A stretch of 64,000 nucleotides of DNA. Source: Nemertoderma westbladi (Eukaryota > Animalia > Xenacoelomorpha). Shown one piece after another: positions 19,598-54,031 of the stretch. Below the pieces are notes generated by a model. The model ran no database searches and was not told the origin of the DNA. It saw nothing but the letters and a program-made list of their open reading frames with translations. The position numbers and the translations under genes are program-made. The stretch is from the NCBI GenBank assembly GCA_032718475.1, contig JAUCBJ010008389.1, positions 103,568-167,567 on the forward strand, given 5' to 3'. Position 1 is the first letter of the stretch; every line of letters starts with the position of its first letter.

Positions 19598-20853
19598 ATG
19601 GAATCTGTGAAACCGCCACAATCAAAAATGACGCCATTAAGTGGTAGCTCTACTAGCAGTGTACCCACCCCATACGTAACAGTGGCTACGGGTAAGAGTT
19701 CGTGGAGTCTCGAGTGTTTGGAAGAAGGAATAGAAATAAAAGCATTTAATGGGAAATACGTTTGATTCAATCGTTGGGGTGATGCCAACAAAGGACGCAA
19801 TGTCGTGCAAGAATCGGTAAGTCTTACTTACCAGAACATAAGATTCCTATTTGACTTCCTCAATTATAAGAAAATAGCTATTGAATATTATAAGGAATAC
19901 ACCAGAGGTAATTTGTTTATAACACCCATAAATCACGCGTACTTACGCATTGGGAAAAACGGCGCATCAATCTTTATCTCGCGAAGAATTCTAGATGTCT
20001 TACAAAACATCTACGCCAAAGCCGTTCTTTCCCGTATTGAACCAAAAAAGAAGGAAATTCACGATGAGAATTTTATGGAGTTCGAAGATTGTGGGTACAT
20101 TGGATATATCTACGACTTTGAAGGGCAACGATTTGTCGGCGTTTGGGAAGCGGATGATATAGGTAGACAGCGGAAGGGTGTTCTATATTACAATGGGTTG
20201 AATCTCAGAGCGGATGAATTCTGTTTGCTCGACTTTAACATAGATAAGAATGTCAGGAGAATATCGACGAGGTTAGTATAAGGTACACATCGATCGTTAA
20301 CGAAAACGGGATATATTTGTCCCACAACTTCGACACCAAGGTTATTTTCATCCCTCGAAACAACGCAAATGTCAAGATAATTAAGGAATTACAGAAGTAC
20401 GCGGGCCACTATATTCCGACTGGGTGTGACTTTCTACCGATTAAAAAGTTAGTTGTTGAGGCTGCGATTGATGAATTAGCGGGCGAGGAACCCATGAAAG
20501 TGGAAATGCTGAACAACGCTAGTCAGCTGAAGACGTCCGAAGCAGTAAAAGTCACTGCTAAGAAAATGGATGAGAAAAAAATCTGGTTGCCGACGATTGC
20601 GGAAAGTGAACTAAGAGGCAGCGCTGAAAAAAAGAATGATTATAAGGATATTGATACCCTCGTTGGGGGTGTGAGCGCTCAGATGAAGATGAAAACACCT
20701 AAAGCCATGAAAGAACAAGCGCTTAAGCGAAAAATTGATCTCGTCGTGAATAAAACACCTAGCTATGAGTATGAAGATATCAGCGACTTTGAAGAGGACA
20801 TCGTGGATGATGAAGTCATACCTCAAATAAAGAAGATTAAACATTCAGTGTGA
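19598..20853 (+). pseudogene. Polinton accessory gene with PC4-like ssDNA-binding segments and an acidic/basic tail (one stop, one frameshift)
   Basis: ATG at 19598. A TGA at 19763 is followed in frame by ORF 19805-20281. The frame of ORF 20317-20853 is open back to 20248, so the three pieces look like one gene. YIYDFEGQRFVGVW...KGVLYYNGLNLRADEF resembles PC4. Confidence 0.5.
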
Positions 20854-22651
20854 ATATTTCGAGCGGTAGAAACTTTATTATTATAAATAGGTCGCGTTCG
20901 TAGGTGGTGTCGCTGTATCGAGTCAGACATGGTTAAATAATTATTATTATTTTGTGGTAGAAAATTATAAATTTGTTAAATTATTTGTTGGTATAATTAA
21001 TTATCGGTTGAAATATTTGTTGGTATAATGATAATATTATAAATACAATAACCTTACTTCGTCGTAGCTCGCCCCACTACTCATTAATGGCACCCATATG
21101 CTAAGGCTTCACTCGCTTCATGGCTCGCCCCATTTTTTCAATGTTGGAAGGAATGATGGGGATGTTGGGTGATGGTGGTGGTGGTAATGATGCTGAGGAT
21201 GAGGAAGAAGACTGGGCGGATGGCGATAGCGGGATAAGCGGGTGAGGTGGTGGGAGAAATTTTTAAACCTTTTTTAGTTGTTGCGTCATAACATTACTTC
21301 GATGCTATCACTCACTTCATGGCTCGCCCCATAGGTAGAATAATCAAATTAAAATAATATTATAAATACTATAACCTTAACCCATATGCTAAGGCTTCAC
21401 TCGCTTCATGGCTCGCCCCATTTTTTCATCAAATCACGAAATCATGTTAAAGACTTTATAACAAACGTCTGCAACCCACTTACTATATTGGGTTTTACCT
21501 ATTGCGGTTCAAGGTCAAACGCCAATCACTCACTTCATGGCTCGCCCATAAGTCTGTGTTTATTTACCTTTTTAGTTGTTGCGTCATAACCTTACTTCGA
21601 TGCTATCACTCACTTCATGGCTCGCCCCATAGGTAGAATAATCAAATTAAAATAATATTATAAATACTATAACCTTAACCCATATGCTAAGGCTTCACTC
21701 GCTTCATGGCTCGCCCCCATTTTTTCATCAAATCACGAAATCATGTTAAAGACTTTATAACAAACGTCTGCAACCCACTTACTATATTGGGTTTTACCTA
21801 TTGCGGTTCAAGGTCAAACGCCAATCACTCACTTCATGGCTCGCCCCATAAGTCTGTGTTTATTTACCTTTTTCAGTTGTTGCGTCATAACCTTACTTCG
21901 ATGCTATCACTCACTTCATGGCTCGCTATTATAAATACTATAACTTTATACTCACTTCACGGCTCGCCCCACAACTAGTTGCTTAGCAATAACTATAGAA
22001 TTGTAATATTGGTGGCTGTCGTTAGTTGAATACAATAACCTTACTTCGATGCTATCACTCACTTCATGGCTCGCCCCATAAGTCTGTATTTAGTTACCTT
22101 TTTAGTTGTTGCGTCATAACCTTACTTCGATGCTATCACTCACTTCATGGCTCGCCCCGTAGGTTGAATAATCAAATCATGTTAAAGACTTTTATAACAA
22201 ACGTCTGCAACCCACTTACTATATGGGGTTTTACCTATTGCGGTTCAAGGTCAAACGCGTGCGGTAGCCGCCGTTAGTCTGTGTTTATTCACCTTTTTTA
22301 GTTGTTGCGTCTGTAATAGTCTATCATGTTAAAGACTTTTATAACAAACGTCTGCGACCCACTTACTATATTGGGTTTTACCTATTGCAGTTCAAGGTCA
22401 AACGCCAACCGGTAGACGCGAATTAATTAAATTACTTCCGTCTGTGGACTGGCCTTATACCGCATATGTCACATATACACAGTGGTGACATATGTTACAT
22501 ATGCACAATGGTAACCATAGTAACCATAGTAAGTGGGTGGGGCAACAATAGTAATCATAGTAAGTAGGTGGGGCAAGAGCCGTTCGGCAAATTCTTTAAC
22601 ATGGTAGACTATGGCAGACACTGTCTCAATCCCGGTGTTTAGCATACTACT
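20260..22651. repeat. Right inverted arm of the Polinton, with 300-bp tandem units and terminal ACTACT
   Basis: Reverse complement of 1-1909 (position 1 corresponds to 22450), plus extra partial units at about 21900-22400. Followed by ATTATT, a candidate 6-bp TSD whose left copy is not visible. Confidence 0.88.
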
Positions 22652-36472: not shown

Positions 36473-38509
36473 AAATAAAACTGAACTACCAAAAATACTC
36501 AGATGTTAGACTTTAGACTTTAGTGCACAATTATTGTAATCTTGTATTTAAAACAAATAATCGAATATTCACTTAATGTCGATCGATACATTACATACAT
36601 TCAAAATGTTAAGTAGGACGTACAGTAGTTAAGTAGGATTATATTGTTAACGACGTTAACAGTGCGAAACATAGGTCCTACACGTATTTGTGTTGTTGTC
36701 TTGCTCTTGTTTAGGCCTAGTGTAATATAACCTCCACTCCTAATTAATTTCAATTTACATAATCAGTCGTTTATCGACCTACTAAAATATTAATTTTACA
36801 ATAAATTTTAACAGGAAAATCACAAAAATATTCAGTTTCCACTAAATACATTAATTTATCACTCATATTTATTAATTATCACTACACGATCTATACTATC
36901 ACTCACAATGCAGTTTTATTTTACATAACAAAATTAATTATAATAATTCTAAAAATATAAGGCAGATTATCCTAAAGTTAGCTCTTTAGTCTTTAACAAT
37001 CTTATACATTGACAAGACTTATAAAATAATTGATGTTGAATAATTATTATTAAGATTAAAATATATTATTAGGAATTCGAAGAAAGCAAATTGTATTGAG
37101 TTAGTACAGTAGTATTGGCAAGTTAATCTCATAAACCAGTCTAGTCTAACTTTAGAGTAGCCTTGTTCGCATTGTTCCAGGTTTAGGCCTATAGATTCCA
37201 CCGTCTTCGTTCCAGGTTTAATACTGTAATAGACTCCGTTATCCGTCTCGATCGCTTCGGTATGCACCATCTTACTGGGTTTAATAAACTCCATCGCTCT
37301 GTTTTGTAGATTACTTCGCCATCGTCTGATCGCTTTGGTTGCGTGTTTAATATTGTAGCCTAATTCTAATAGTCGCCACCGTATCGTTCTGGATACATTG
37401 AATAGACTCCATTGTCCATCACGATCGTTTCATTGTTTACGTTTAATTGACTCCGTTGCCTCCTCGGATTAGGAATCCGGCCGGGTTTCGTAGATTCCGC
37501 CATCGTTCAGCAGTTCAGTGTTTTTAATCAAAGCCATAATTCCGGCACCACGATCAACGATTTCGAAAGTAGCAGACAGACAGACTCCGTCAACAACAAC
37601 ACTCGGGGAACAGGAACATACTATACTGTACAGTAGAATCCACTCTAATCTACTTTGCTAAGGTACTTTTGCACTTTATTATCTGTATCCCTTACGGTAC
37701 CGGTATCGATTTATGAATACGGGTACAATAAAATATAAGATGCACAGTACAATGGAAAGGAGCTAAACTAGAAATAACAAATATAGTTACCGTAGAAACA
37801 TCACCTAAATGTTATAATCACTGAAATTTGTAATCTTTAATAATTATGGTATGTTAACACTCAAACATGTTAGGTTAGGAAATAAATATCAGCCCAATTT
37901 AGATTCTTTACCTTGTCTAAAGTTACAGAAAGGCCATGATAATAAAAGGGCTACGGGTTCGAGGCCCAGGCCTTGCACGATTTGCAGTGGGCATCAGGGA
38001 GCTCGGGCGAGTCTCTGAGGCGAGAGTTGGGATGGAGAGGAGGATCGCCAAAACAGTCAACATCGGGATTACAGGCGACGCCCATGCCAGCGGGCGCCGA
38101 GGGCGATTTCGCGAAGAAAAGACCAGGGGAACTAGAAGGATGGAAAGTCACGGGCGAGAGCCAAGGTGGGAAGGGACACAGTGGGTCTACCGGGATACCG
38201 GGTTTGGATCTACTCCCAGCGGAGGACGAGGATGACGACGAGTTCGGGGAGATACCTCCCATCGAGAGGATCGGCCACTCAGACAGGGACTGGGTTTGCG
38301 GGAGAGTGGTGACGGCCAGCGGGGCGAGGGCCTTCTGGGATAAACCCGGTAAGCGGGCCTGGGCGCATGAGGAGCCGGCGATGGATTTCGTGGGGAGCAC
38401 CATCAGATTGAGCAAACAACCGGGAACGGCACCACGGGTAGTGTTCGGAGAGACGATGCCGAGGCGAGACAAGGACATAGATATGGACAGAGACGTTAAC
38501 GTCCAGAAG

Positions 38510-39050
38510 TGTTAGCTTATTCAATCCCGCCAACACCCCATAAAGTTATAAGCCGATAAGCAATATTGGGAGCCACGAGATTGGGCAATTAACCAACTCG
38601 TGCCATCCCAATAAGAGTGGGAAGGAAGCACACAATAGAGGGTCAGGGGCCAAACCCCTAACCCAGGGAGAACAGGTGGAGTGAACGGGAATACTCCACG
38701 GGGCGCCAACAAGGGTATTAACCAATCAGAGGGGGGGAATGGCATCGATTGAGTAGCAGTAAGGCCACCGTGCAATATAACCAATAACCTATTAATCAGT
38801 GATTCAGTTATCTCAGTGCAGCAGTGCTAGCGTAGGGTACAGTCAATTAGTTTAGTTAGGGGATCACGGGACTTTAGTTACCGTATCCCGCCTTGTACAC
38901 ATTATATCTATATCTATATCCTATGCCCTATTATTATTATACACCGAACTTCAGAACTCAGTCACTCTATTTCACCCTTATACACGGCGGGGACGCGTGG
39001 ACTAAATTACCACATCGGATAAATCGGGATCCCTCCTGGATCCCGTCACA
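38510..39050 (+). repeat. 5' LTR of element 2
   Basis: Direct repeat of 51459-51999. TATA-like AATATAA at 38774 and TCAGT initiator-like motifs at about 38796-38817. Confidence 0.96.
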
Positions 39051-39130
39051 GTAACTAAATCCGAGCTGCCGCCCCAGTTAAACTCTGAGAACTACACTGC
39101 TAGCTAGTCGAACTCCACCGAGCAGACGAG

Positions 39131-42100
39131 ATGAGTGAATCGGGCGAGACACCGCCGCGGACCCCGGACGAAGATCAAACGATCCGCGAGGCCGCGACCA
39201 AGCGATACAGGCCCACAACACCGGAGCCATCGATAACGGGCGAACCGGAAGTCCAGAACGAGGAGAGCCTGGAACCCGAAGTCGAGCCGAGAGAGAAAGA
39301 GAGCGAGATGGCGGGAGATGGAGATGAGTCGACACGGAACGGAGAACGGCGCGCCGATGTCGCCGGCCAGCTACCGGCCGAGGGCGACGAGCGGCCCACC
39401 GAAACGGTGGGGCCGACGGTGCGACGCCGGACGCGAAGAGACGGAGGAGAGATTGGTACCGATGTCGCCGGCCAGCTACAGGCCGAGGGCGACGGACGGC
39501 CCACCGGAACGGCGACGGTGGAGCCGCCGGTACGACGTCGAACCCGGAGGGACGGAGGAGAGGTCGGCGACGAGGACGTCGGGGTTTCAGAGCGACTTCG
39601 ACGAGCCTACATCGCGGCCCGGAGGATGATAAAGGACGCCAAGAAGGAAGGGGCGAAGGTAGACGAGGTGAGACTGAGAAAGCGACTAGGTGAGTCGGAT
39701 AGACACTTTAATTATCTAATACGTTTTGGGCAGAGAGAACTAGCCGAAACGAGAGCACATGAAATTGCCGGGGAACTGTTTGAACTATGGGAATGTGGGA
39801 GTATGGAACCTAGCGTAGCGTCAGTGTACATAGGGCCATACTTGGTCGATGCCCGGGGAGTAAAACCAGCGGGTTGGAAGGGACTCGAAGGGGGCGAATC
39901 CGAGGTTAACCCCGAGGATTCGGCCTCGTCGGTCGGAGAAAGCTCCGGGAAGCGGGGGAAAATCAGTAGGTCGGGAAGGCGGGGGAAATCCGTCGTAACC
40001 GATAAGTCTGTTACATCCTCCGCGAAAGGAAGAGCGGTGAGAGAGATAGGTGCCGAATATCGTCTCAGCATGGCAGAGAAAGATCATAGAGAAATGAAGG
40101 AACGGCTAGAGGAAGGGAGAGTGCGGTTAGAGAGGGAAACGGCATTGCTTAAAGAAACAGGAGAGAGGGCCGAAAGGGCTTTGAAAAGCCTAAGGGAGTA
40201 TGATGAGATAGAGGAAAGGGAGTGTAGGGAGCGTGAGGCGAGAGGGGAAAAGGAACGCAAGGAGCGTGAGGCGGAACGCAAGGAGCGTGAGGCGAGAGGG
40301 GAAAAGGAACGCAAGGAGCGTGAGGCGAGAGAGGAAAGGGAACGCAAGGAGCGTGAGGCAAGGGAGGAAAGGGAACGCAAGGAGCGTGAGGCGGAACGCA
40401 AGGAGCGTGAGGCGAGAGAGGAAAAGGAACGCAAGGAGCGCGAAATGAGACGAAGGGAGAGTATTAAGAGCGCTGCAGAGTCGGCCATTAGGGACACCCA
40501 GGAGCGTGAGAGGAGAGTGGCAGAGACTGAGGGAGAGAACAAGAAAATAGAGAGACTACAGAGTGAGTCTGCGGGAGATGAGATTAAACGGGCGCACGAG
40601 TTGCAACTCGTGCGAACAGCGCCGTCTGAAAGCGGGGCCGGCTCGAGTATTTTTAGGGAGCCGGGGGCCGTAGATACATTTATTAATACCCCACTGACAG
40701 GGACCGCACGACAGACTCAAGACTGGTGCGACCGTACGGGCGGGGGGGGTAATAATAATAATGGTACAGTAGACGTTGTTAATATTGATAATACCGTATG
40801 GGACAACACTAATCAAACCTTTATTACAGGTAATGCTTTACATAGTGGTAGTAATTTAAATTTAAATCAGAACGCCCCTAGTATTAATGTAGGAAATAAC
40901 TCTAATATTAATGTAGCTACGCAAAATAATTCAAATAATCAAAATAATAACCCAGATTCGAATCTACAAAATAATTTAAATAACGCAATTACGCAAAACA
41001 ATTCGAATAATTTAAATAATGACCTATGCCCGAATTTACAAAATAATTCAGATAACGTAGTCGTGCAGAATAATATAAATAACTTTGTTCCAAACGAACA
41101 AAATAATTCCGTTTCCAATATGGGTGCTATTAATGTAAACGCGTCGGGCCTGCATAACCAGGAAACAGAGGGCCTGGTAGGCCACGTAGTTAGTAGACAG
41201 GGAGCAGAGGGCCTGGTAGGCCACGTAGTTAGTAGACAGGAAGCAGAGGGCCTGGTAGGCCACGTAGTTGGTAGGGAGGGAGTAGAGGGCCTGGTAGGCC
41301 ACGCAATAGCAGAGGGAGAGGCGGGGGTGAATGGACCCGACCGCAGTAGGGTTGATGTGTCGACTAGAGAGGTATATAATAGCGGGGAGAGAGGTAGCGA
41401 AGTTAGATGTAGCGAGTGGGGGGGGGGGGGGGCTACGAGGACCCCACGACAGAGAGTTAGCGGCGAGAGGGGGGGGGGGGGGGCAAGGAGTGTCCCACAG
41501 CCGTCAGCGGATAATGCGAGGGCCGATATAGGTAAACCGCAACGACCGGCGACGGAAAGTAATAGGGGGATCGCGAGTATCCCCAGCGGCGTGCGACCGA
41601 GCAGAGAGAGACAGGTTGACGTCGCGAGAGGGCGGACGAAGCGTCGAGCCCGATCAGAGGAGGGAAGAAGAACAGTGGGGTTTAACTGGGACCAGACAGG
41701 GGAAACTATACAGCACCCGTCGAATCCATTGGAAGCGCAGGCGATAGGGATGGCCACGTTGATCGATGCTTTGAAAACGAGGATCGAGTTACCACCCGTG
41801 GAACCATTCAAGTTCGACGGGAGTAGGCCGGAAGAATATTTACAATTTCGGCGAATGTATAGTAACGAAATACTAACAAAAAACTTGACGCAGGCGGAGT
41901 GCCTAAAGTATCTACAAGTGTACACGGGAGGCCCAGCATACGATATCGTGAGGCAATACCAAGGAATAGAGGGCGGCTTCACGACAGCATGGCGGGCACT
42001 GGATAGGGAATACGGGCACCCGGCCAAGATCATCAGGCAGACGCTGAGAGGCATAACATCGGGTGGCCTACAGGACAACCCCGTTAGCATTAAGACGTTT

Positions 42101-43735
42101 GCTAACAAAGTCGAAAAGGCGCTAATCGTACTGAAGACGCTAGACGCGCCGTACGAGCTCAATGCGTCCAACAACATCACCACGATAGCGCAGGCACTAC
42201 CGAACTGGCTGCGCAACAAGTGGAGAAAAATCGCCTTCTCCACTCGAGATAAGAAGGGTGCGGAACCAGGTTTAGAAGAAATGTCAAACTTCTTAAATTA
42301 CGAGGCTGAACTAATAACGGACCCAGTCTATAGTGAAGATAGCCTGGGAAAGGGACCAAAGACAGATCACTACAGGCCGAAACCAGAGCACAATACATCA
42401 AACGCATTGCCGAGGCTCAGGCAATCATTGCCATACGCAGCGACGCAGGGGACTGCAAGTCCACAGGCAAACGGAGATAAGACAACATCATGGAACGGAC
42501 AGGGGAACAATAACAACATGAATAAACATAACCCCAGTACGTCCAGTAGGCCAAATCCAGTCAATAAGAATAGTAGGGACTTTGGTACGAACATAACTGC
42601 GATACGCAATGCATTGTATAAAGAGGGCTACGACCCAAAGAGCAAATGCCAGTTACACGCAAATGCGCTTCATAAAACCATGAACTGCAGGTACTGGCAG
42701 GCGCTACCGAGGCAAGACCAGATAGATTACGCGTCGAGCAATAAAATCTGCTCGCGATGTGTGAAGAGTGGACACAAGGCCAGGGAGTGCCAAGAGAAGC
42801 CGGTCAAGTTTGGCCAAAGGAGAGGCCAAACGATGGCAACGAGCACGGTAGGGGCGAAGAAGAGAGGCACGGTGTTACTTGGAGTAGTACCGGTGCGAGT
42901 GATCGGGGAAGGCAATCGATCAGTAACAACATTAATGCTGGTTGATAGTGGAGCTGCCATCACATTAGTCGAGGAATGGGTAGCCGAAGAAATAGGATTG
43001 AGAACAAGGCCAAGCAGAATGGCGGTAACAACCATCTCTAGCAAAGATGAGATCCTAGAGATGAGGACAGGACGGTGCGCAATTGCAGCAGTAGCACCAG
43101 GATGCGATTATGGGGCAACCATCGACCCCATCCAAGTAATAGAGTCAATTAACATCAATGCCAGGCGGCCAACCAACATCGAGGTCGAGCAATACAAATT
43201 CCTGGACAACATTGACTTCTCGATCCCAGACGTGGACGTTAGGAAGGTATCCATCATAGTAGGAATGGACTGCCCGACGGCCCACGAAAGAATGCAAACG
43301 GTCTTCGGCGAAGACAAGCAGAGCGACCCGGTGGCTATATTAACACCATTCGGGTGGACGCTGAGTGGTCCAATTAAGAGCAAGATACCATTCAGGATGT
43401 CGGAGACATCAGGATGCATGTTCGCGGGAACAATGCAGGAAATGGGTGATGAGGGAGCAGAGGAGCAGCTTAAAAGACTGCTCAGACAAGACTTTGAGGG
43501 ACTGAAAGAGACCGGGGTCGGGACCTCGGTAGAAGACAAACAGGCTCTACAAAGCGTGGAGGAATCGATGACGTGTGATGAGGGGCGGTATACAATAGGA
43601 ATGGTATGGAAACTACCGAAGATACCGCTACCCGATAATAGGGGGATGGTACTCACGAGACTTCGTAAGCTGAAACAAACACTAAAACGGAGCCCCGAGA
43701 AGAACGAGTACATTCACAAAACCATTAAGAAGTAG
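39131..43735 (+). CDS. Bel/Pao Gag-protease and start of pol (1534 aa), ending at an in-frame TAG
   Basis: Gag core PFKFDGSRPEEY...LKYLQVYTGG; knuckles CQLH...HKTMNC and CSRCVKSGHKAREC; protease LVDSGA...IIVGMD...TPFGWTLSG. Confidence 0.92.
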   Translation: MSESGETPPRTPDEDQTIREAATKRYRPTTPEPSITGEPEVQNEESLEPEVEPREKESEMAGDGDESTRNGERRADVAGQLPAEGDERPTETVGPTVRRRTRRDGGEIGTDVAGQLQAEGDGRPTGTATVEPPVRRRTRRDGGEVGDEDVGVSERLRRAYIAARRMIKDAKKEGAKVDEVRLRKRLGESDRHFNYLIRFGQRELAETRAHEIAGELFELWECGSMEPSVASVYIGPYLVDARGVKPAGWKGLEGGESEVNPEDSASSVGESSGKRGKISRSGRRGKSVVTDKSVTSSAKGRAVREIGAEYRLSMAEKDHREMKERLEEGRVRLERETALLKETGERAERALKSLREYDEIEERECREREARGEKERKEREAERKEREARGEKERKEREAREERERKEREAREERERKEREAERKEREAREEKERKEREMRRRESIKSAAESAIRDTQERERRVAETEGENKKIERLQSESAGDEIKRAHELQLVRTAPSESGAGSSIFREPGAVDTFINTPLTGTARQTQDWCDRTGGGGNNNNGTVDVVNIDNTVWDNTNQTFITGNALHSGSNLNLNQNAPSINVGNNSNINVATQNNSNNQNNNPDSNLQNNLNNAITQNNSNNLNNDLCPNLQNNSDNVVVQNNINNFVPNEQNNSVSNMGAINVNASGLHNQETEGLVGHVVSRQGAEGLVGHVVSRQEAEGLVGHVVGREGVEGLVGHAIAEGEAGVNGPDRSRVDVSTREVYNSGERGSEVRCSEWGGGGATRTPRQRVSGERGGGGARSVPQPSADNARADIGKPQRPATESNRGIASIPSGVRPSRERQVDVARGRTKRRARSEEGRRTVGFNWDQTGETIQHPSNPLEAQAIGMATLIDALKTRIELPPVEPFKFDGSRPEEYLQFRRMYSNEILTKNLTQAECLKYLQVYTGGPAYDIVRQYQGIEGGFTTAWRALDREYGHPAKIIRQTLRGITSGGLQDNPVSIKTFANKVEKALIVLKTLDAPYELNASNNITTIAQALPNWLRNKWRKIAFSTRDKKGAEPGLEEMSNFLNYEAELITDPVYSEDSLGKGPKTDHYRPKPEHNTSNALPRLRQSLPYAATQGTASPQANGDKTTSWNGQGNNNNMNKHNPSTSSRPNPVNKNSRDFGTNITAIRNALYKEGYDPKSKCQLHANALHKTMNCRYWQALPRQDQIDYASSNKICSRCVKSGHKARECQEKPVKFGQRRGQTMATSTVGAKKRGTVLLGVVPVRVIGEGNRSVTTLMLVDSGAAITLVEEWVAEEIGLRTRPSRMAVTTISSKDEILEMRTGRCAIAAVAPGCDYGATIDPIQVIESININARRPTNIEVEQYKFLDNIDFSIPDVDVRKVSIIVGMDCPTAHERMQTVFGEDKQSDPVAILTPFGWTLSGPIKSKIPFRMSETSGCMFAGTMQEMGDEGAEEQLKRLLRQDFEGLKETGVGTSVEDKQALQSVEESMTCDEGRYTIGMVWKLPKIPLPDNRGMVLTRLRKLKQTLKRSPEKNEYIHKTIKK

Positions 43736-46700
43736 GTCGAGAAAGGATGGGCCGTGGAGTTACCGGTCGACGAGCCGAACACGGACAGGACATACTACCT
43801 GCCACTCCACGTAGCATTAGACCCAAAGAAAGGTAAACTGAGGATGGTAGTCGATGCATCGGCAAAGACCGACAGAAAATGCTTAAACGATTACCTGTTG
43901 GAAGGCCCAAATATTTACAATTCGGGCATAGAAGTACTACTTAGATTTAGGAATGGGAAACACGCCTTCACGTGTGACATAGAAGGCATGTTCAACCAGG
44001 TCCGTGTAACGGAAGAAGACAGTGACAGTCAACGCTTCTTATGGTATAACGGCGAAGAAGAACCGCCGATAATACCAGCGTATAAGATGGTAGTACAAAA
44101 CATGGGGGCCAAGTCGTCCTCATTTACGACGACTATGGCAGTGAGAGACACGGTAAAGGGGAAGGAAGATAGATACAGCAGTAGGGCCGTCGATATGATC
44201 CGACGCGGCTTCTACGTAGACGACGGTATGGAGTCTGGAAATACGGTTGAGGAGATACTGGAAACAGGGCGCGAGGTTCGCGACATCCTGAAAGGATCCG
44301 GCTTCAACCTGACCAAATTCCAATCCAGTTCAGAAGAATTTGTCAAGGCAATAGAGGACAAGAAACCAGAATCGACCATGGACAACCCTACAACAGCCAA
44401 AGGACAGGACATGGCAAATAAGAGAACACAATCGCAGCAAAAGGCATTGGGAATCGTGTGGGATAGAGAAACAGACGAACTGAAGTATCAGCTGAGCCAA
44501 GAGGGCGCAGACACCCATACGAAGAGGGGTTATGTATCGTATATAGCAAGGATATACGATCCCCTAGGCCTAGCATCCCCATTACTAGTCACGGGGAAAC
44601 AGATACTCAAGAGAGTATATAAATTGAAGGATGAGTGGGACGTAGAGGTACCAGAAGACATCAAGAAACAGTGGAGCAGATGGACAGGAGACCTGGAAAG
44701 AATGGGAACATACAACATGCCGCGAGTGTATTTTCCGGACGGGAACATGAAAAGTCTGGACCTACATATGTTCTCCGACGCGTCGTTGGAGGCATACGGA
44801 GCGGCACTCTATTTAGTACAACGAGAGGGGGCTCACAAGCCCAGACTAGCCTTTAGCAAAGCTAAGTCAACGCCGCCAGATTCAGCATCTGTTCCCAAGT
44901 TAGAATTGACAGCTGCGAGACTAGGAGTTAGAGCCACAGCCTACCTAGTGGATACTATTCCCAACATAGTGGAGACACACTACTGGACGGACTCCATGGT
45001 AGTGCTTGGTTGGCTACACAACGAAAAGACGAGATACCCAATATTCGTCGCGAATAGAGTGGACGAAATAAGGGCGAGCACAGAACTGGAAAGGTGGCAC
45101 TACTGCCCAACAGACGAGAACCCAGCGGACTTGCTGTCGAGGGGCGTGGAACGCCACACTTTCTTAAAGAAGGAAGTATTGTGGCAACATGGGCCACAAT
45201 TTCTGAGCGATAAAGAGGCCTGGCCGCCAATGAGAAAGGTGGAGCCGGGCTCAGAAGTGGTGTCAGAGGGAGAAGAGGGAGACTCGGAGGGAGAAGAGAT
45301 ATACTCCCAGATGGTGAGGGAGATTAGGGACGTGCAACCAAAGCAAGAACTACGCGATAACCCGACGGACAAACTCCTCAGCTATAGTTCTAGTTGGTAC
45401 AAGACCAAGAAACTAGTGGCGTACTGGAGAGCCTTCGGGAATTTCCTCGCGGGAGTTAATAAGGAGAAGAAAACCAGGGAAACCATAGATCTGGAAGGAG
45501 CGGCCAAGGCAATAATCCGCTATGAACAACGGAAGAACTACGGCGACGAGGTGGAACGTGTCGGCAACCAACAGCACCTCCGACGGGACAGCGAGTTGAT
45601 TACGCTGTCGCCACAACTCAACGAGGATGGGATTCTAGTAATGAATTCTAGGGTGGGATATAACAACAGTATAGTCGTGCCACCGAAACCCATCATCATT
45701 CCCACAGGATCGCCTATAGTCCACCAGATCATATGGGACTCCCACAAATCGATACTGCATGGGGGCACCAACCGAACCCTCACAGAGATAAGGAGGACCT
45801 ATTGGGTCAAACAATTAAGGAAGAAGGTTAAAGCGGTAGTGGGGCAGTGCCAGACCTGCCGACGAGCGAAGAAGGAACGAGCCGTACAGGAGATGGCGCC
45901 ACTACCGGCGAGTAGGGTAAGACAGCACGACCCGCCATTTACGCATTGCGGTGTGGACATGTTCGGGCCGATAAAGATCAAGGTGATGCGACACACGGAG
46001 AAACGCTACGGTATTATCTTCGTATGCAACAATACACGGGCGGTAGGGATAGAACTCGCCCAAGATGCAACCGCATCAGCATTCATTAACGCCTTAGAAA
46101 GGTTTAGGGACCGCAAAGGTGGGACGATCGCAGTGATATACAGCGACAATGGCACCAACTTTGTGGGCGCAGAGAGTGAGATGGCAGAGGCCTTGGAAAT
46201 CTTAGAAGGAGAAGAAGTCAGGGCAGCCATGAGAAGACGACAAGTAAGGTGGGAAAGAAGGACGCCGTATGCACCACATACACTAGGATGCGTCGAGAGA
46301 CTGGTGGGCAGTTCAAAGCGTCTAATGACGAAGTTAATGAACACCCACATGGTCACTGAAGACGTCTTACGGACAGTACTTGCGAAGTGCGAGGGGATCA
46401 TTAATAGCAGACCGCTATACCCGGAGAATGATGACCCTGAGTCATTAGACGTGCTGACGCCTAGCCATTTTCTGATGGAAAGGCCAGCGACCATCGATAT
46501 GCGGGGTGTAGACCCAGATGACATACACTCCCGCCAAAGTTGGAAAGTCGCTAAAGCAATAAGCGCAGAGTATTGGAGGAGGTGGGTCGAGGAATACCTA
46601 CCCACGCTCCATAAGCGAAGCAAGTGGAGGAAGCCGAACAGGGAGTTAAGAGAGGGAGATCTCGTAATCGTCACGGATGATACTATCATCAACAACCAGT

Positions 46701-46852
46701 GGCGGTTGGCGAGAGTCGTAGGCACCTACTCCGACGAGGACGGAAGAGTCCGATCGGTAGAAGTGCGGATAGGTGGAAAGATAGGTGCGAAAGACAGAAA
46801 AACCTACAGGAGAGCAGTAGGTAAATGCTGTCTTCTAGAAGGGGCACCTTAA
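43736..46852 (+). CDS. Bel/Pao Pol: reverse transcriptase, RNase H, integrase (same frame as the upstream ORF)
   Basis: YYLPLH...LRMVVDASAK; DIEGMFNQV; FYVDD; FSDAS; PKLEL; NPADLLSRG; HGG...CQTC; GVDMFGP; SDNGTNF; ERLVG; LREGDLV...WRLARV. Confidence 0.95.
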   Translation, partial: VEKGWAVELPVDEPNTDRTYYLPLHVALDPKKGKLRMVVDASAKTDRKCLNDYLLEGPNIYNSGIEVLLRFRNGKHAFTCDIEGMFNQVRVTEEDSDSQRFLWYNGEEEPPIIPAYKMVVQNMGAKSSSFTTTMAVRDTVKGKEDRYSSRAVDMIRRGFYVDDGMESGNTVEEILETGREVRDILKGSGFNLTKFQSSSEEFVKAIEDKKPESTMDNPTTAKGQDMANKRTQSQQKALGIVWDRETDELKYQLSQEGADTHTKRGYVSYIARIYDPLGLASPLLVTGKQILKRVYKLKDEWDVEVPEDIKKQWSRWTGDLERMGTYNMPRVYFPDGNMKSLDLHMFSDASLEAYGAALYLVQREGAHKPRLAFSKAKSTPPDSASVPKLELTAARLGVRATAYLVDTIPNIVETHYWTDSMVVLGWLHNEKTRYPIFVANRVDEIRASTELERWHYCPTDENPADLLSRGVERHTFLKKEVLWQHGPQFLSDKEAWPPMRKVEPGSEVVSEGEEGDSEGEEIYSQMVREIRDVQPKQELRDNPTDKLLSYSSSWYKTKKLVAYWRAFGNFLAGVNKEKKTRETIDLEGAAKAIIRYEQRKNYGDEVERVGNQQHLRRDSELITLSPQLNEDGILVMNSRVGYNNSIVVPPKPIIIPTGSPIVHQIIWDSHKSILHGGTNRTLTEIRRTYWVKQLRKKVKAVVGQCQTCRRAKKERAVQEMAPLPASRVRQHDPPFTHCGVDMFGPIKIKVMRHTEKRYGIIFVCNNTRAVGIELAQDATASAFINALERFRDRKGGTIAVIYSDNGTNFVGAESEMAEALEILEGEEVRAAMRRRQVRWERRTPYAPHTLGCVERLVGSSKRLMTKLMNTHMVTEDVLRTVLAKCEGIINSRPLYPENDDPESLDVLTPSHFLMERPATIDMRGVDPDDIHSRQSWKVAKAISAEYWRRWVEEYLPTLHKRSKWRKPNRELREGDLVIVTDDTIINNQWRLARVVGTYSDEDGRVRSVEVRIGGKIGAKDRKTYRRAVGKCCLLEGAP

Positions 46853-46959
46853 AATGGAGTTAGAGTGGAGTTTAGTCGTCCAAGCTTTGGACTGAGGGGG
46901 GTGGGATTGAGGGCGAGACGCCCTTCCCACACAAATAAAATAAAAATAAAATAAAAATA

Positions 46960-47705
46960 ATAGTTAATTAGTTAGTAGGTACGTAGTACCTAGAGTTAGT
47001 TAGTTAGTTAGTAGGTACGTGGTACCTAGAGTTAGTTAGTTAGTTAGTAGGTACGTAGTACCTAGAGTTAGTTAGTTAGTAGGTACGTAGTGCCTAGAGT
47101 TAGAGAGTTAGTAGGTACGTAGTACCTAGAGTTAGAGGGTTAATAGGTACGTAGTACCTAGAGTTAGTTAGTTAGTTAGTAGGTACGTAGTACCTAGAGT
47201 TAGTTAGTTAGTTAGTAGGTACGTAGTACCTAGAGTTAGTTAGTTAGTTAGTAGGTACGTAGTACCTAGAGTTAGAGTTAGAGTTAGAGGGTACATAGTA
47301 CCGATAGTTAGAGAGTTAGTAGGTACGTAGTACCTAGTTAGAGTTAGAGTTAGAGTTAGAGGGTACGTAGTACCGATAGTTAGAGTTAGTAGGTACGTAG
47401 TACCTAGTTAGAGTTAGTAGGTACGTAGTACCTAGTTAGAGTTAGAGTTAGAGGGTACGTAGTACCGATAGTTAGAGAGTTAGTAGGTACGTAGTACCTA
47501 GTTAGAGTTCGAGTTAGAGTTAGAGGGTACGTAGTACCGATAGTTAGAGAGTTAGTAGGTACGTAGTACCTAGTTAGAGTTAGAGTTAGAGGGTACGTAG
47601 TACCGATAGTTAGAGTTAGTAGGTATGTAGTACCTAGTTAGAGTTAGAGTTAGTAGGTACGTAGTACCGTTAATTAGAGTTAGAGGGTACGTAGTACCAT
47701 TAGTT
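46960..47705. repeat. Array of about 22 short hairpin units with (GTTA)/(GAGTTA) linkers between pol and ORF3
   Basis: Core TAGGTAC-GTA-GTACCTA (7-bp stem, 3-nt loop) and a variant GGTAC-GTA-GTACC. Confidence 0.93.
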
Positions 47706-48203
47706 AGAGAGAGAGAGTGAGAGGTAAAAGGGGGTAAATAGGATATAGATATTAGTTAGTAGTAAGTAGAGTTAATAGCGAGAGGGGGGCATATGAGTAC
47801 AGCTGGATAAATCGTGCGGCCACACGACGCATACTGCTGTACTGCATGGGCCCACAGAGTAGGCCAGAATATGGATCAGAGAATAGAATAAATCCATAGG
47901 CAGTAGTAGGTAGTAGGACAGTAGGATCAAAACAAACAAATAAATAGAATAGGGCTAAAAATCGGAAAATAGTGGCAACACAAGGAAAGTCGTTCTAGAA
48001 CATAATAAAAGTAACGGACGGAAATTGTAAATTAGGCTGATTTACTAGCTCCGAAATTAATTAGGATAAATTTAGGCTAAAAGGTGCAATTAAGTAGAAA
48101 GTAGGCCATTATCGAACTGTACGAAACATCTTAAATACTTCACTCATCTGTATTGCGCCTTGGTAAGGCACCACCCTGCAGGTGAGCGAGTGTAGTGTTC
48201 GGA

Positions 48204-50738
48204 ATGGCGAGTAAGCTGATCAGGAAGAGAAAGGCGGAGTCAGGAGGAAAAGAAATACTGGTGGATTTCACCGAAAGACACCCGGAGGAGAAGACGAGAG
48301 GATACTACGAGAAGTTGGAAAGGGGTCACGCGGCACGAGCGCTGCAGGACCACTTCCGGGAGATGCACGAGCAGCGGCTGGTCGGGACCTACGGAACGCC
48401 GTCGCTGGACAACGCGATCTTCCAACACTTCCACTACGTGGTGAAAGGAGACGAGGCGAAGTTCGGGATTCCGAAGTATCCGAGGGAATCGCCGAGGAAG
48501 GACTGGAAAAGATTCATAGAGTCCGTCAACAGAGGAGGATATATGATCCTAGATGACGAGGGAACCGTGGAAGACGAAGCGGGTTCGAGACGAGGAACGG
48601 CAGGGTCGGCCAGGACCATACTCTTGCATTTGGCCGCGCCAAATGGGGACATCTTCTTATTCGACCTAGGGACGTATGGGAAGAGGGATGGGCCGAAATT
48701 AGACCGATTGCCGAAAGCGGTACAAGTATTAGTAAGAGAGAAGTCGACGACGAAAGTGGGATCGGCGATTCGCGAGGACGCGGAGAGGATCATTGGTCCG
48801 GACGCCACCAACCTCCTGGATATGCAGAAAGTCTTTATGGCTATGACGGCACCGGATGGATTGGGGGTGGTCGAGAACACAGGCCAATGCGGGGCGGTGG
48901 CGATGGGCCAATTATTGGGGCTCGTATGTCACAAACCGATGGACTGGGGAAAGTTTAGGGAAGAATACGGAGCAGAACTAGCGAACTTGCTGAAGTGGGG
49001 AGCGAGACCGGGAAAGCAGGAGGTATATCAGTTTCGCAGAGGAGCGATAAAGGTATATCAGAAGCGATATATCCTGCAGGAGGACTGGATGATGATAAGT
49101 TTGCTTAACTTATTCATGACCGTAGTTATCGAAAGGGAACCAGGGGCATTTCTGTTATCGGGATCACCCCTAAGCTACAGGAGAGCCTTTAAGACGGCCT
49201 TTGACGGTCTGGTAGACCACCCGGGGCTGAAGGGCGAGTCGGTGTACTACAACAGCCGACATCTGGTAGACGGGGAGACGGATACACCGTATCAGAGATG
49301 GGAGCAGCTAGAGGCGGACAGACGAGAAGCAAAGCGACTGGAAGAAGTCGCTAGACGGGAGAGGATAGAAGCAGAGGAGAGGGAAGAGGAGGCCGGGGCA
49401 CAGAGTTACGGCTTCGAGGAACAGGCGGGCCTAGACGAACTTCATTGGACTTCGTCAGGGAGTTCGGGGGAGTCTCTAGGGCGAGAATTGGGATGGACGG
49501 TGGGATCGCCGAAACAGTCGACGTCGGGGTTGCAAACGATGCCCATACCAGCGGGCGCCGAGGGCGACCAACCGCCAAGGAAGCTAAGGGAGCTAGAGGG
49601 ATGGAGAGCTACGGGCGAGAGCCAAGGCGGGAAGGGACATAGTGGATCCATCGGGATACCGGGGTTGGAAACACTACCAGAAGAGGAAGACGGCGACGAC
49701 GAGTTCGGAGAGATGCCGCCCATCGAGAGGATAGGCCACTCGGACACGGACTGGGTTGGCGGAAGGGTGGTGACAGCCAGTGGGGCGAGGGCCTTCTGGA
49801 ACAGATCCGGCAAGCGGACCTGGGTGCACGAGGAGCCAGCGATGGATTTCGCGGGGAGCACCATCAGGTTGGGCGAGCAACCGGGGACGGCACCACGGAT
49901 AGTATTCGGGGAGACGATGCCCGAGAGGGGCGGAGAGATCGACGTAAACAGGGAGAGCAATGTAGAGAAGTTCGCCTACCAGCGACTCCATAGACCGCGG
50001 AGATCGCTTGGGACGAAAGATGAGGTGGGACGGGAGACATTGGTACTCGGCTGCGACTACTGTGGGAGACAGACCCATCAAGAAAGCAGCTGCCTATACC
50101 GGTTCCAACGGGGGACCTTTTGTCTCTACTGTAGAGAACCAAGTCACAGGATGGGGGCGTGTCCACGGTTGCATAACCGATGTCCAAAGTGCCACTTTCG
50201 GGGACACTACGGACGCGAGTGCGACTGGATGAACGACGAGGAGAAGTTCACGAGGTTCGAGGAGTGGGCCGACGTCGGGGCCATGACGCGCCAGCGCATG
50301 AAGGCCCAAGAGTTCAAGTGGGGTTTCTTCCTCATAAACCAGGAGACCCACATGGAAATCATAAAGCGAAGGTTACCGTTTACCTATCAAGAGGTAGCAA
50401 CGGCGGCGTCGTTCGCCGGAGTTATGAACACGCAACGGTACCTGGACAGGTGGACACCAGAGAACCGGAGGGAGTTTAGGGATTTCTTGGCGGAACACGT
50501 ACCAAAGGCAATGAAAATGATCCTATGGGACGCCACACGAGGGAGACAACCAGGCCATTCTGAGGGGCCACCGGCGAAGCGGTATCGGGCATTAATAACA
50601 CCAGCGCCCAAGGAGCCGACGACCGGGATCAGCAAGGAAGTGGCGGCGAAGGTCCGGAAGCAGAAAGCGGATGATGCCAGAGGAGCGGTGATAACCAAGA
50701 AACGGGCCAGGGAAGAGGACGTGAGGAGGAACAGATAG
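48204..50738 (+). CDS. ORF3: DEDDy-like (RNase D/WRN/EXD/Mut-7 family) 3'-5' exonuclease plus three CCHC zinc knuckles
   Basis: ExoI ILDDEG; LLHLAAPNGDIFLFD; LPKAVQVLVREKSTTKVGSAIRED (ExoII); NLLDMQ; QKRYILQED (ExoIII-like). Knuckles CDYCGRQTHQESSC, CLYCREPSHRMGAC, CPKCHFRGHYGREC. First ATG at 48204. Confidence 0.8.
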   Translation: MASKLIRKRKAESGGKEILVDFTERHPEEKTRGYYEKLERGHAARALQDHFREMHEQRLVGTYGTPSLDNAIFQHFHYVVKGDEAKFGIPKYPRESPRKDWKRFIESVNRGGYMILDDEGTVEDEAGSRRGTAGSARTILLHLAAPNGDIFLFDLGTYGKRDGPKLDRLPKAVQVLVREKSTTKVGSAIREDAERIIGPDATNLLDMQKVFMAMTAPDGLGVVENTGQCGAVAMGQLLGLVCHKPMDWGKFREEYGAELANLLKWGARPGKQEVYQFRRGAIKVYQKRYILQEDWMMISLLNLFMTVVIEREPGAFLLSGSPLSYRRAFKTAFDGLVDHPGLKGESVYYNSRHLVDGETDTPYQRWEQLEADRREAKRLEEVARRERIEAEEREEEAGAQSYGFEEQAGLDELHWTSSGSSGESLGRELGWTVGSPKQSTSGLQTMPIPAGAEGDQPPRKLRELEGWRATGESQGGKGHSGSIGIPGLETLPEEEDGDDEFGEMPPIERIGHSDTDWVGGRVVTASGARAFWNRSGKRTWVHEEPAMDFAGSTIRLGEQPGTAPRIVFGETMPERGGEIDVNRESNVEKFAYQRLHRPRRSLGTKDEVGRETLVLGCDYCGRQTHQESSCLYRFQRGTFCLYCREPSHRMGACPRLHNRCPKCHFRGHYGRECDWMNDEEKFTRFEEWADVGAMTRQRMKAQEFKWGFFLINQETHMEIIKRRLPFTYQEVATAASFAGVMNTQRYLDRWTPENRREFRDFLAEHVPKAMKMILWDATRGRQPGHSEGPPAKRYRALITPAPKEPTTGISKEVAAKVRKQKADDARGAVITKKRAREEDVRRNR

Positions 50739-51458
50739 GTTCCCAGAGACGAGGGAACGAGGGAGTGAGACTGAGACTGGAAAGTGGTGCGCCTGGAAGG
50801 CGCCGCATGGAACGTACGAACTATTAAATACAAACTTAATTAATGCAAATAACATATAAGTGCAATTTGTATGTACGTACGTAGTGATTAGCAGTAAAAC
50901 ACACGATCGGAGTAAGTACTATAGTCATACAACCTTTCTCAATTAGCTACTGGGACTGGGGGATAACTGACTATGGCACTATGGACGAGACAACTGACAA
51001 TTTCACGCTTCTTGAGTGCGACGGCACGAGAGGGGGGGGGGAGGTTCGTCAGGAGAGCTAAAATAGTCAAAGTGGAGTTGAGGATCGGAGTAAGAGTGCG
51101 AAGTGCGGAGAGAGTGCGAACGCAATTCTAGTGTGGGGGGGGGGGGGGGAGAATGAGAGGCTGAGTGAGGGACGAGGAGGTCCGGGGGTATGAGAGAGTT
51201 AGGGTGAGAGTGAAGGTGAGATAGGGCGAAAATGTTGGGGAAACAAAAGTCGCGTGAAGAGGTGAGCGCGATCGGCCCGACATGAGACGCCAGGCACACA
51301 GGGTAGCGTTATCATACCCATAGGGGGCGGCCTGGAAAGCCGACCCCGGGAGAAAAGAATTCCACCCCACACCCGATACTAGATCGGGATCCAGCGGGAT
51401 TGTAACGCACTTTTTGGTTGATGCTATCTTCTTACCGGGAAGATAGCATGGGGGGGAG

Positions 51459-51999
51459 TGTTAGCTTATTCAATCCCGCCAACACCCCATAAAGTTATAA
51501 GCCGATAAGCAATATTGGGAGCCACGAGATTGGGCAATTAACCAACTCGTGCCATCCCAATAAGAGTGGGAAGGAAGCACACAATAGAGGGTCAGGGGCC
51601 AAACCCCTAACCCAGGGAGAACAGGTGGAGTGAACGGGAATACTCCACGGGGCGCCAACAAGGGTATTAACCAATCAGAGGGGGGGAATGGCATCGATTG
51701 AGTAGCAGTAAGGCCACCGTGCAATATAACCAATAACCTATTAATCAGTGATTCAGTTATCTCAGTGCAGCAGTGCTAGCGTAGGGTACAGTCAATTAGT
51801 TTAGTTAGGGGATCACGGGACTTTAGTTACCGTATCCCGCCTTGTACACATTATATCTATATCTATATCCTATGCCCTATTATTATTATACACCGAACTT
51901 CAGAACTCAGTCACTCTATTTCACCCTTATACACGGCGGGGACGCGTGGACTAAATTACCACATCGGATAAATCGGGATCCCTCCTGGATCCCGTCACA
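51459..51999 (+). repeat. 3' LTR of element 2
   Basis: Appears identical to 38510-39050. Confidence 0.96.
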
Positions 52000-53421
52000 A
52001 GAAGTTTGCTTACCAGCGGCTCCATAGACCGAGGAGGTCACTTGGGGCAAAGGACGACTTGGGGCGGGACGCATTGGTACGAGTCACAGGATGGGGGCGT
52101 GTCCACAGTTGCACAACCGGTGTTCTAAGTGCAACTTCCGGGGGCACTACGGACGCCAGTGCGACTGGATGGACGACGAGGAGAAGTTTAAGATCTTCGA
52201 GGAGTGGGCCGATGTCGGCGTCATGACGCGGCAGCGAATGAAGGCCAAGGAATTCCGGTGGGGTTTCTTTAATATTAACCAGGAGGCCCACCTGGAAATC
52301 ATCAAACGGAGACTTCCGTTTACTTATCAAGAAGTATCAACAGCGTCATCGTATGCTGGAGTGATGAATACACAGAGGTATTTAGATAGATGGGCGCCCG
52401 AGAACCGGGGAGAGTTCAGAGATTTCCTGGCGGAAAATGTGCCACGGGCCATGAAGGTGATCTTATGGGACGCCACTAGGGGAAAGCAGCAGGCGAAGCG
52501 AAGCGATACCGGGAGCTAATAACACCAGCGCCCAAGGAATCGACCACGGGAATCACTAGGGAAGTAACGGCAAGGATGAGGAACCTTAAGGAGGACAAGA
52601 GCAAGGGAGCGGCGACAACCAGGAAGCGACCGAGACAGGACGACGACAGAGGGAAGGAACTGAGATAGTTCCCAAAGGCAGGAGGAGCGAACTAGAACTT
52701 GGAGGGGGTATGTGGGGATGCCTGGGAAGGCACCACATGCGAAGTAATACGAACTTCTAAGTGCAAATTTAATAAAAGTGCAATTAGTATGTACGTATGT
52801 AGTAATCAATAGAATATAATCATATAATCAATATCCAATATAATCAAAGTAAGTAGTATAGTCATGTAACCTTTTCCAACTAGCTACTGGGACTGGGGTC
52901 CAATTGACTATAACAGGACGAGACACTAGACGATCACACTTCTTGAGTGCGACGGCGCGAAAGGGGAGGGTGAGGTTCGTCAGGAGTGAGTGGAGCGGAA
53001 CGAGTAGGGGTTGAGTACAGGAACGCAGGGGAGATAGTGAGAGGTGGTGTTGACGCATGTGGAGAGAATACGGGTGCAATTCAAATGGGGGGGGGGGGGG
53101 GGGGGTAAGAGGCAGAGTGAGGGACAAAGAGGTCCAAAAGTAGAGAGAAGTTAGAGTCAGTTTAGAGTAGAGTGGAGATTTAAAATTGTGTGAGAAGAGT
53201 CCACAATTGTCTCGAACCGAGACGCCAGATGTATTGGTGCGACATAGGTTGGGTTGCACCAAAAGGGGTGTAGTAACATCATCCCCAGAGGGAGCGGCCT
53301 GGAAAGAAACTCCAAGAAAAGAACTCCACCCCACACCCGATAGTAGATCGGGTTCCAGCGGAATTGAAGCGCACTTATGGGTGATGCTATCTTCTCACCG
53401 GGAAGATAGCATGGGGGGGAG

Positions 53422-54031
53422 TGTAAGCGGATTCAGTTCCGCTGCATTACCCTCATAAATGGGAAGTGGCACATTTTCAGTAATATGTCGGAGGTACGAG
53501 ATTGGTAATAACCAATCTCGTATCACAACCAATAACGGGGACAACACAAACCCCAAAGCCACACAAAGGGAGGTTAGAGGTCAAACCACCTCGGAAGGGA
53601 AAATAACCAACAGGGGGGGAAGCACTCCCAAAGAGGTGAGAGGCGTGAAGTAGGTTATCAGCCAATATGAGCGGGGGAGAGCATCCACTGGACAAAGGCC
53701 ACAATAGTGTAGAAATGATTACATATATATTGTCAATGTATAACATTACCGGCTCAGTTACTCAGTCATCAGTTCAGTGCAGACCGGTGATATTCTATAC
53801 CATCACCGTCACCAATACATATATTTACCGGTACAGCATCCATCATATATCAATGCTGCCTAACTGTAACTCTTACTGTGCTATCACACATGTATTCATT
53901 ATCCGAATATCAAGAAACATCAATTAACTCTTATCGTTTTACTGCAACGGCCTCGGCCTAGGTATCACCCAAAGGTAAACACGGTGACGCGTAATAGACA
54001 AATCCGGTCGGGATCCCTTGATCCCGTCACA
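53422..54031 (+). repeat. 3' LTR of element 3 (610 bp)
   Basis: Follows the PPT GGGGGGGAG; TG...CA ends; shares the terminal GATCCCGTCACA with the element 2 LTR. Confidence 0.85.

Follow-up and report, generated by a model that had tools for sequence, protein, structure and literature searches.

How does a retrotransposon begin to copy its RNA into DNA if no tRNA 3' end fits the place where its primer should sit? The question is raised by a 64,000-nucleotide stretch of DNA from Nemertoderma westbladi (contig JAUCBJ010008389.1, positions 103,568 to 167,567, all of which we call the window), in which lies a 13,490-bp long terminal repeat (LTR) retrotransposon, element 2. An earlier reading of the window, which we call the original prediction, proposed that the bases following the 5' LTR of element 2 pair with a segment of that same LTR. 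The pairing is there to be read. That it is the way in which element 2 primes minus-strand DNA synthesis, using its own RNA, we consider possible and stop short of calling probable.

An element without a tRNA-type primer site

Judged by its domain set and order, its LTR ends, its target duplication and its polypurine tract, element 2 is a BEL/Pao (Belpaoviridae) element. The parts of it that matter for priming are these.

38510 to 51999, forward strand: element 2, BEL/Pao LTR retrotransposon, 13,490 bp
38505 to 38509 (left) and 52000 to 52004 (right), forward strand: target-site duplication AGAAG, read directly
38510 to 39050, forward strand: 5' LTR, 541 bp, TGTTAGC...GTCACA, 100% identical to 51459 to 51999
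51459 to 51999, forward strand: 3' LTR, placed by identity with the 5' LTR, its ends read
39051 to 39062, forward strand: primer-binding position GTAACTAAATCC, directly 3' of the LTR, without TGG
38869 to 38881, forward strand: proposed self-primer site GGA-C-TTTAGTTAC, of which 38873 to 38881 complements 39051 to 39059
38774 to 38780, forward strand: TATA-like AATATAA, a predicted promoter element, its role suggested by its spacing to TCAGTT
38804 to 38809, forward strand: initiator-like TCAGTT, some 30 nt 3' of AATATAA, with the start predicted near A38806; it overlaps a second complement at 38801 to 38811

The LTRs open with TGT and close with ACA, and the 5' copy ends ...GATCCCGTCACA at 39050. 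That boundary, fixed in the original prediction, is borne out by the identical 3' LTR (BLAST identity spans 38508-39050 and 51457-51999) and by the AGAAG duplication. The remark that no TGG follows the LTR can be extended to the whole 80-nt leader, which runs from 39051 to 39130 and ends just before the ATG at 39131. Element 2 therefore has no primer site to match the CCA end of a tRNA, the one type of tRNA site that this exclusion covers.

Element 2 is young, recent, evidently active and very abundant: three public DNA runs of one organism yielded 43271, 20374 and 327 contigs that fall on its family. Being recent and abundant, with identical LTRs and open frames, it must have a working primer.

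A complement at the edge of the LTR

Positions 38873-38881, TTTAGTTAC, are the exact reverse complement of 39051-39059, nine of nine from the first base after the LTR. Bulging C38872 lets GGA at 38869-38871 pair with 39060-39062, for 12 bp in total. Both versions of the duplex, abutting the LTR edge, had been described before and are plain in the letters. The pairing ends exactly where the 3' end of a primer would have to sit and lies downstream of the promoter-like motifs, a placement that would favour self-priming.

These bases have no better partner elsewhere in the element. When the 14 nt following the LTR were set against the LTR with RNAduplex, the 38873-38881 site came out best, at -13.1 kcal/mol, and it was again the best when the same 14-mer was slid over the whole 13.5-kb element, the next being -12.2 kcal/mol at 41781-41792. 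The site is thus the best partner on both scales.

How often would a match of this kind turn up by chance? When the LTR was dinucleotide-shuffled 20000 times, an anchored perfect complement of at least 9 arose at offset 0 in 63 cases, and with offsets 0-5 allowed in 289; the duplex energy was equalled in 30 of 2000 shuffles. It was the author of the original prediction who picked this test, after viewing the sequence. Before allowing for that choice the match is unlikely by chance at about the 0.3-1.5% level, which is not extreme.

A fold that could bring the partners together

Folding was the next source of evidence, drawing on element 2 and on two relatives in the window.

38887 to 38897, forward strand: 5' arm of helix 2, CCCGCCTTGTA, pairing 10/11 with 38981 to 38991
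38981 to 38991, forward strand: 3' arm of helix 2, TACACGGCGGG
39025 to 39045, forward strand: terminal U5 hairpin CGGGATCC-CTCCT-GGATCCCG with an 8-bp stem, present in every fold
39000 to 39006, forward strand: U5 segment GACTAAA, which competes for the site (7 pairs, one G.U) and resembles the primer-site sequence
53422 to 54031: 3' LTR of element 3
about 25070 to 24610, reverse strand: fourth LTR remnant of the same lineage, ending AATCCCGTCACA, then AT-rich flank

The proposed helix is missing from the minimum free-energy (MFE) fold, and for that reason we used pair probabilities and constrained folds. If the RNA began at 38870, the nine pairs would have probabilities of 0.24-0.53, eight of them near 0.5. 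A fold with the helix imposed is 1.6-2.8 kcal/mol less stable than the MFE fold. Helix 2 (38887-38897 with 38981-38991) has a probability of 0.14-0.25, and it forms unprompted once the helix between site and primer position is imposed. Together with the U5 hairpin it then gives a three-way junction with the primer site at the base. In the constrained fold, element 2 thus has the features associated with Tf1, a U5 hairpin adjoining the primer site and a fold joining the partners.

The original prediction had foreseen a flanking stem near 38981 that would bring the partners together. This part of it is supported: such a stem forms in the constrained fold and has counterparts in two relatives.

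The relatives are element 3 and the fourth LTR. Element 2 is a nested insertion, sitting in open reading frame 3 (ORF3) of the older, 5'-truncated element 3 (37946-38509 plus 52005-54031), and the two are 75-84% identical. The element 3 LTR and the fourth LTR share with element 2 U3 sequence, a TATA-like box at the corresponding place followed by TCAGTT, and a GACGCGT block. All three have a terminal hairpin and a ATCCCGTCACA end in common; the hairpin, which in element 3 lies in the 54006-54026 region, has a stem of different length in each.

The middle of the three related LTR halves was too diverged for a consensus fold, and each was folded alone. The MFE fold of element 3 has a long-range stem, UCACCGU:ACGGUGA (53803-53809 with 53981-53987), of probability about 0.57; that of the fourth LTR has GUCAUUUU:AAAGUGAC, of probability 0.76-1.0. 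Both stems sit at the place of helix 2, near which element 2 has CCCGCC:GGCGGG. Between the element 3 stem and that of the fourth LTR there are two double compensatory changes (C-G to U-A and G-C to U-A) and one change to G.U. Stems at matching places, with compensatory changes, suggest a conserved structured R/U5 domain, which in element 2 would juxtapose site and primer position.

Variation among copies

Public reads offered a second view of the same region. Contigs of four runs were compared over 38795-39085 (291 positions) at 80% likeness and a 2% share threshold. This gave 46 variant rows, and statements on variants from here on hold for the 40 of them that were listed, at 37 positions; 12 of the 54 indel rows were listed. 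No variant falls in 38866-38893, 38977-39012 or 39036-39054, and the variant-free run over the site, 38866-38893, is equalled by other runs of similar length. Depth peaks, marking blocks common to many copies, lie on 38865-38894, 38935-38964, 38975-39004 and 39015-39054.

The sole variant in the primer site is 39055 C>T, at about 10% of depth in runs X1 and X3 and 27% in X5. It turns the pair with G38877 into G.U, still leaves the site without TGG, and was seen in context in a contig fragment. The copies in public reads, where this is the only common variant of the site, showed no TGG-type sister sites. In two X1 contigs the LTR end is followed by 10-11 leader bases and then by a jump of about 90 nt, which hints weakly that the conserved unit stops at that point. 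Taken as a whole, the read variation is compatible with constrained pairing and is no proof of it.

Position 38843 is T in the window and C in about 86% of the read depth in two runs, so at this position the window copy departs from the commoner variant of its family.

Sisters were also sought further afield. The LTR-end pattern occurred at 66 loci in metagenome contigs, none of them related beyond the pattern itself. Combined with the primer site it had 0 matches in either viral contigs or contigs of prokaryote genomes, and a scan of viral contigs with the element 2 Pol protein found 0 relatives. The window itself, all 64 kb of it, holds no further 5' LTR-leader junction of this lineage.

How self-priming might work

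The scheme would run in four steps. The R/U5 part of the genomic RNA would fold back, with helix 2 and the U5 hairpin at 39025-39045 bringing the site beside the post-LTR bases. A duplex of 9-12 bp would then form at the LTR edge. RNase H of the element would nick after C38881. Finally, reverse transcriptase would extend the new 3' end through U5 and R, with the usual transfer to the 3' R to follow. The transcription start, the R/U5 border, the cleavage and the priming in this scheme are all things we infer.

It may even be that an entire lineage within BEL/Pao has abandoned tRNA priming in favour of an internal R segment, placed by the conserved stem and the U5 hairpin. We hold this wider claim a shade more loosely than the one about element 2.

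Weighing self-priming and its rivals

A good deal weighs against self-priming, and we gather it here with the other explanations that the same evidence invites. Chance comes first. The TAGTTAG motif, counted as TAGTTA(G), occurs 35 times in element 2 against 0.7 expected. Most copies are in 46961-47709, related ones stand in the LTR at 38848-38860, and the motif overlaps the proposed primer site. Dinucleotide shuffles do not model this repetition. The longest perfect run of pairs is 9, and the criterion in a survey of plant self-primers was a complement of 10 bp or more that begins 0-5 bp past the LTR (PMC6317226). ARAGORN found 0 tRNA in the 64-kb window, so the comparison with host tRNAs is limited to the CCA-end rule.

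Much of this would suit a cellular RNA as primer, something other than an intact tRNA 3' end (a tRNA half or a small RNA), with the LTR complement a chance match aided by TAGTTA. We think this rather unlikely. In its favour, half-tRNA primers are known in Ty1/copia lineages (PMC6317226), the tRNA exclusion covers the CCA-end type, the 9-mer match is no more than moderately rare (the 289 in 20000 with offsets 0-5 and the 30 in 2000 by energy), element 2 has its second site at -12.2 kcal/mol, and the helix is not in the MFE fold. A tRNA half, on the other hand, would have to look like one: by eye, no register of the primer-site complement gives U33 and purine 37 with a matching stem, as textbook rules require. 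Rfam gave 0 matches in 38400-39300. A chance match, moreover, had no need to be anchored at the LTR edge, in the transcribed half of the LTR, adjoining a stem kept in relatives.

A primer formed across a splice junction was considered and rejected. No GT/GC-AG split complement has both parts of at least 4 nt; four GT/GC-AG split matches have a 3-nt first part in U3, and the best non-canonical split complement, of 11 nt, was equalled in 36 of 300 shuffles.

Folding supplies the next group of difficulties for self-priming. The MFE fold of 38806-39135 does without the proposed helix and gains no stability over shuffled sequences (z = -1.07). The pair probability of site and primer position is 0.06-0.17 in RNAs whose start is put at 38801-38815. 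The site also has a competitor, since its duplex with 38994-39012 reaches -9.6 kcal/mol, with a pair probability of 0.02-0.08. Element 3 and the fourth LTR, as folded here, have the corresponding segment paired inside U5, and for this reason conservation of the site may serve U5 structure only.

Perhaps, then, the pairing is real and its role structural or regulatory: a stem between R/U5 and leader that hides or presents the primer site, or that acts in packaging or dimerisation in the manner of the U5-leader and U5-IR stems of retroviruses, while another primer does the work. The R/U5 folds of the relatives, a long-range stem and a terminal hairpin with compensatory changes, fit such a role, as does the pairing of the site's segment within U5 there. 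So do the depth peaks on 38865-38894, 38975-39004 and 39015-39054. In element 2 the site can pair with U5 at 39000-39006 or with the primer site, which suggests a possible switch. We nevertheless regard a purely structural role as improbable. It leaves element 2, with no TGG, without an identified primer, and the duplex ends at the first post-LTR base, a precision needless for mere structure.

Variation, too, withholds the support that self-priming might have had from it. A compensatory change was not seen, for 39055 C>T has no matching variant at 38877. Among 25 positions of the duplex 1 varied, where about 3 were expected (37/291); at P of about 0.15 the difference is not significant.

Then there is the place of the site. 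It lies about 67 nt downstream of the predicted start at A38806, close to the 70 nt estimated originally, and in Tf1 it is the extreme 5' terminus of the RNA that primes (PMC5445492). Arguing from the retroviral scheme, plus-strand synthesis on so long an internal primer would run beyond the 9 matched bases and copy unmatched ones as well. The presumed RNA run, X6, has one contig here; it reaches 38849, stopping at a polymorphic spot.

Might element 2 prime just as Tf1 does, with the 5' end of its transcript (AGUUAU..., from TCAGTT at 38804-38809) pairing with the primer site and the 9-mer a bystander? The weaker alternative on the putative initiator, which the original prediction had pointed out, is certainly in the sequence: GATTCAGTTAT at 38801-38811 is complementary at 9 of 11 positions by Watson-Crick pairs and at 10 of 11 once a G.U is included, and the predicted start falls within it. 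In element 3, CTCAGTTAC occupies the initiator-like motif, and on this rests the prediction that the post-LTR bases of that element are GTAACTGAG. Set against this, a start at A38806, itself predicted, leaves just 6 nt of the complement in the RNA, and the duplex with the primer site amounts to -6.7 kcal/mol against -13.1, with a pair probability of about 0. Priming from the 5' end strikes us as very improbable.

One last point bears on self-priming in general. The original prediction presented element 2 as an independent second case of a logic already seen in element 1.

5870 to 17807: element 1, 751-bp repeats, 750/751 identical

Our test took element 1 as 5870-17807. The bases following the repeat of that element have an anchored complement in its own LTR no longer than 5-6 nt, and their best duplex, -9.3, was equalled in 635 of 2000 shuffles. 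The element 1 pairing is not above chance in this test, and element 2 is therefore not shown to be a second case.

The rest of element 2

The remaining features of element 2 are as follows.

39131 to 43735, forward strand: ORF1, gag (DUF1759) and aspartic protease with a long repeat-rich N-terminal part, ATG at 39131, TAG at 43733 to 43735
43736 to 46852, forward strand: pol, in the ORF1 frame, with RVT_1, Peptidase_A17 (Pao), Integrase_H2C2, rve and DUF5641
46961 to 47709, forward strand: tandem array lying between pol and ORF3, its 36-bp unit rich in TAGTTAG
48186 to 50738, forward strand: ORF3, 850 codons stop to stop, without a family match
51421 to 51449, forward strand: perfect 11-bp hairpin ATGCTATCTTC / GAAGATAGCAT, just 5' of the polypurine tract
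51450 to 51458, forward strand: polypurine tract GGGGGGGAG, abutting the 3' LTR

Pfam finds DUF1759 (8.8e-11), Peptidase_A17 (3.3e-40), DUF5641 (2.9e-24) and Integrase_H2C2 (1.6e-12), with RVT_1 and rve scoring below their gathering cut-offs. Homologues in the protein collection have the same domain sets, the best Pol relatives being just 35% identical. Peptidase_A17 and DUF5641 are specific to BEL/Pao, and with them in its pol, element 2 falls outside the Tf1/sushi clade of Ty3/gypsy.

At 13,490 bp, element 2 exceeds the 4.2-10 kb that the profile of the International Committee on Taxonomy of Viruses (ICTV) gives for Belpaoviridae genomes (PMC8742986). The excess is made up of the long N-terminal part of ORF1, the 0.75-kb tandem array and ORF3. 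Upstream of the gag domain, ORF1 has some 900 repeat-rich, purine-rich codons (39131-41800), with repeats at 40195-40440, 40918-41057 and 41159-41303; the element 1 ORF has a similarly long N-terminal extension. The array holds about 21 copies of its unit, a number that differs among element copies in public reads.

A single TAG (43733-43735), followed by G, divides gag-protease from pol. The two share a frame, and Pol is likely to be made by stop-codon readthrough rather than by frameshifting.

ORF3 has no Pfam family, and its best Atlas score, 0.83, gives no lead. It has a counterpart in element 3, 75-84% identical, and it occupies the place where some BEL/Pao elements have an env-like gene. 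Elements 2 and 3 also have the 11-bp hairpin before the polypurine tract in common (51421-51449 and the 53385-53413 region), with different loops.

Element 1 and its surroundings

Element 1 has one ORF, a distant gag-protease homologue of ORF1 of element 2 (22% identity), and it has no pol ORF, no target duplication and no clear polypurine tract adjoining its repeat. Its first 12 post-repeat bases, TTAAAGGATATA (6621-6632), have a perfect reverse complement at 17037-17048, 8 nt before the 3' repeat. About 6e-4 such 12-nt matches would be expected in the 10.4-kb interior. The pair could be a 5'-3' cyclisation signal, another kind of primer site, or inverted ends bordered by TTAA on either side.

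The element lies between two copies of a 572-bp direct repeat (99.5% identical), 5222-5793 and 17809-18380, in the order A, 76 nt, B ... B, 1 nt, A. A simple insertion does not produce this order, which points to a rearrangement or to two copies having recombined. The region is further bracketed by two inverted 1.67-kb copies (98.6% identical) at 242-1912 and 20257-21926, which contain internal 300-bp tandem repeats.

Comparison with known systems

BEL/Pao elements are described as confined to animals (PMC3601003), in keeping with an animal host. The ICTV profile has Belpaoviridae primed by host tRNA-Arg or tRNA-Gly over 18 nt (PMC8742986), and Achilles uses tRNA-Tyr (PMC4580426). Element 2 resembles the canonical members in gene set, layout, LTRs, target duplication and polypurine tract, and departs from them in having no TGG in its leader and in its 13.5 kb. 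In the extracts of the literature on Pao with self-priming or primer binding site we found no claim of BEL/Pao self-priming. Self-priming as such is known in other LTR groups; for BEL/Pao it would, we suggest with some reserve, be new.

What would follow from it? If it is true, a third LTR superfamily has acquired or retained priming without a tRNA, with a primer taken from inside the RNA instead of from its 5' end. Annotation pipelines that demand a tRNA-type primer site would then miss or mis-score such elements. An internal primer would also raise a question that Tf1 does not, that of plus-strand transfer with a long RNA primer. If instead the match is chance, element 2 is still without a recognisable primer site, which itself needs explaining.

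Other groups also depart from the usual tRNA site. Half-tRNA priming is found in copia and in the Osser, Bryco, Gymco-II and Bianca lineages (PMC6317226). Element 2 is like these in that its primer site does not begin with TGG. It is unlike them in that half-tRNA sites match internal parts of tRNA-Met or tRNA-Ile, and element 2 fits the anticodon-loop rules, by eye, in no register. In the fungal GalEa copia elements a 'Conserved Hairpin Site' replaces the primer site, and its authors could find no LTR complement for it (PMC5445492). Element 2 and GalEa are alike in lacking a classical primer site and in having a conserved local structure where one would be, and they differ in that element 2 has an LTR complement. 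There is a likeness, too, to the U5-IR and U5-leader stems of retroviruses, in that U5 sequences pair with those flanking or overlapping the primer site. In retroviruses with these stems and the primer activation signal, a tRNA still primes.

Close to the scheme proposed here are the plant TAR elements of Ty1/copia (Houba, Osr-1), for which self-primers are predicted (PMC6317226). As with element 2, the call is made from sequence alone, on a post-LTR complement somewhere in the 5' LTR. The survey's threshold of at least 10 bp, 0-5 bp after the LTR (PMC6317226), compares with 9 in element 2, and both superfamily and host kingdom differ.

Close to it as well is the Tf1 group. Tf1 itself is an established self-primer, and for the Tf1/sushi, Tcn1 and TAR lineages self-priming is a prediction (PMC6317226, PMC5445492, PMC5443660). 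Element 2 differs from the Tf1 group in being BEL/Pao and not Ty3/gypsy, and its putative self-primer lies about 67 nt inside the predicted transcript. The Tf1 primer is 11 nt long, cut between nucleotides 11 and 12, so that Tf1 has 11 pairs where element 2 has 9 perfect ones, or 12 with a bulge. Yet like Tf1/Tf2 of S. pombe, Tf1/sushi and Tcn1 (Ty3/gypsy chromoviruses), element 2 has no tRNA-type site and has post-LTR bases that complement its own R/U5. And as in the Tf1 group, a U5 hairpin adjoins the primer site, and a multi-stem fold would join the partners.

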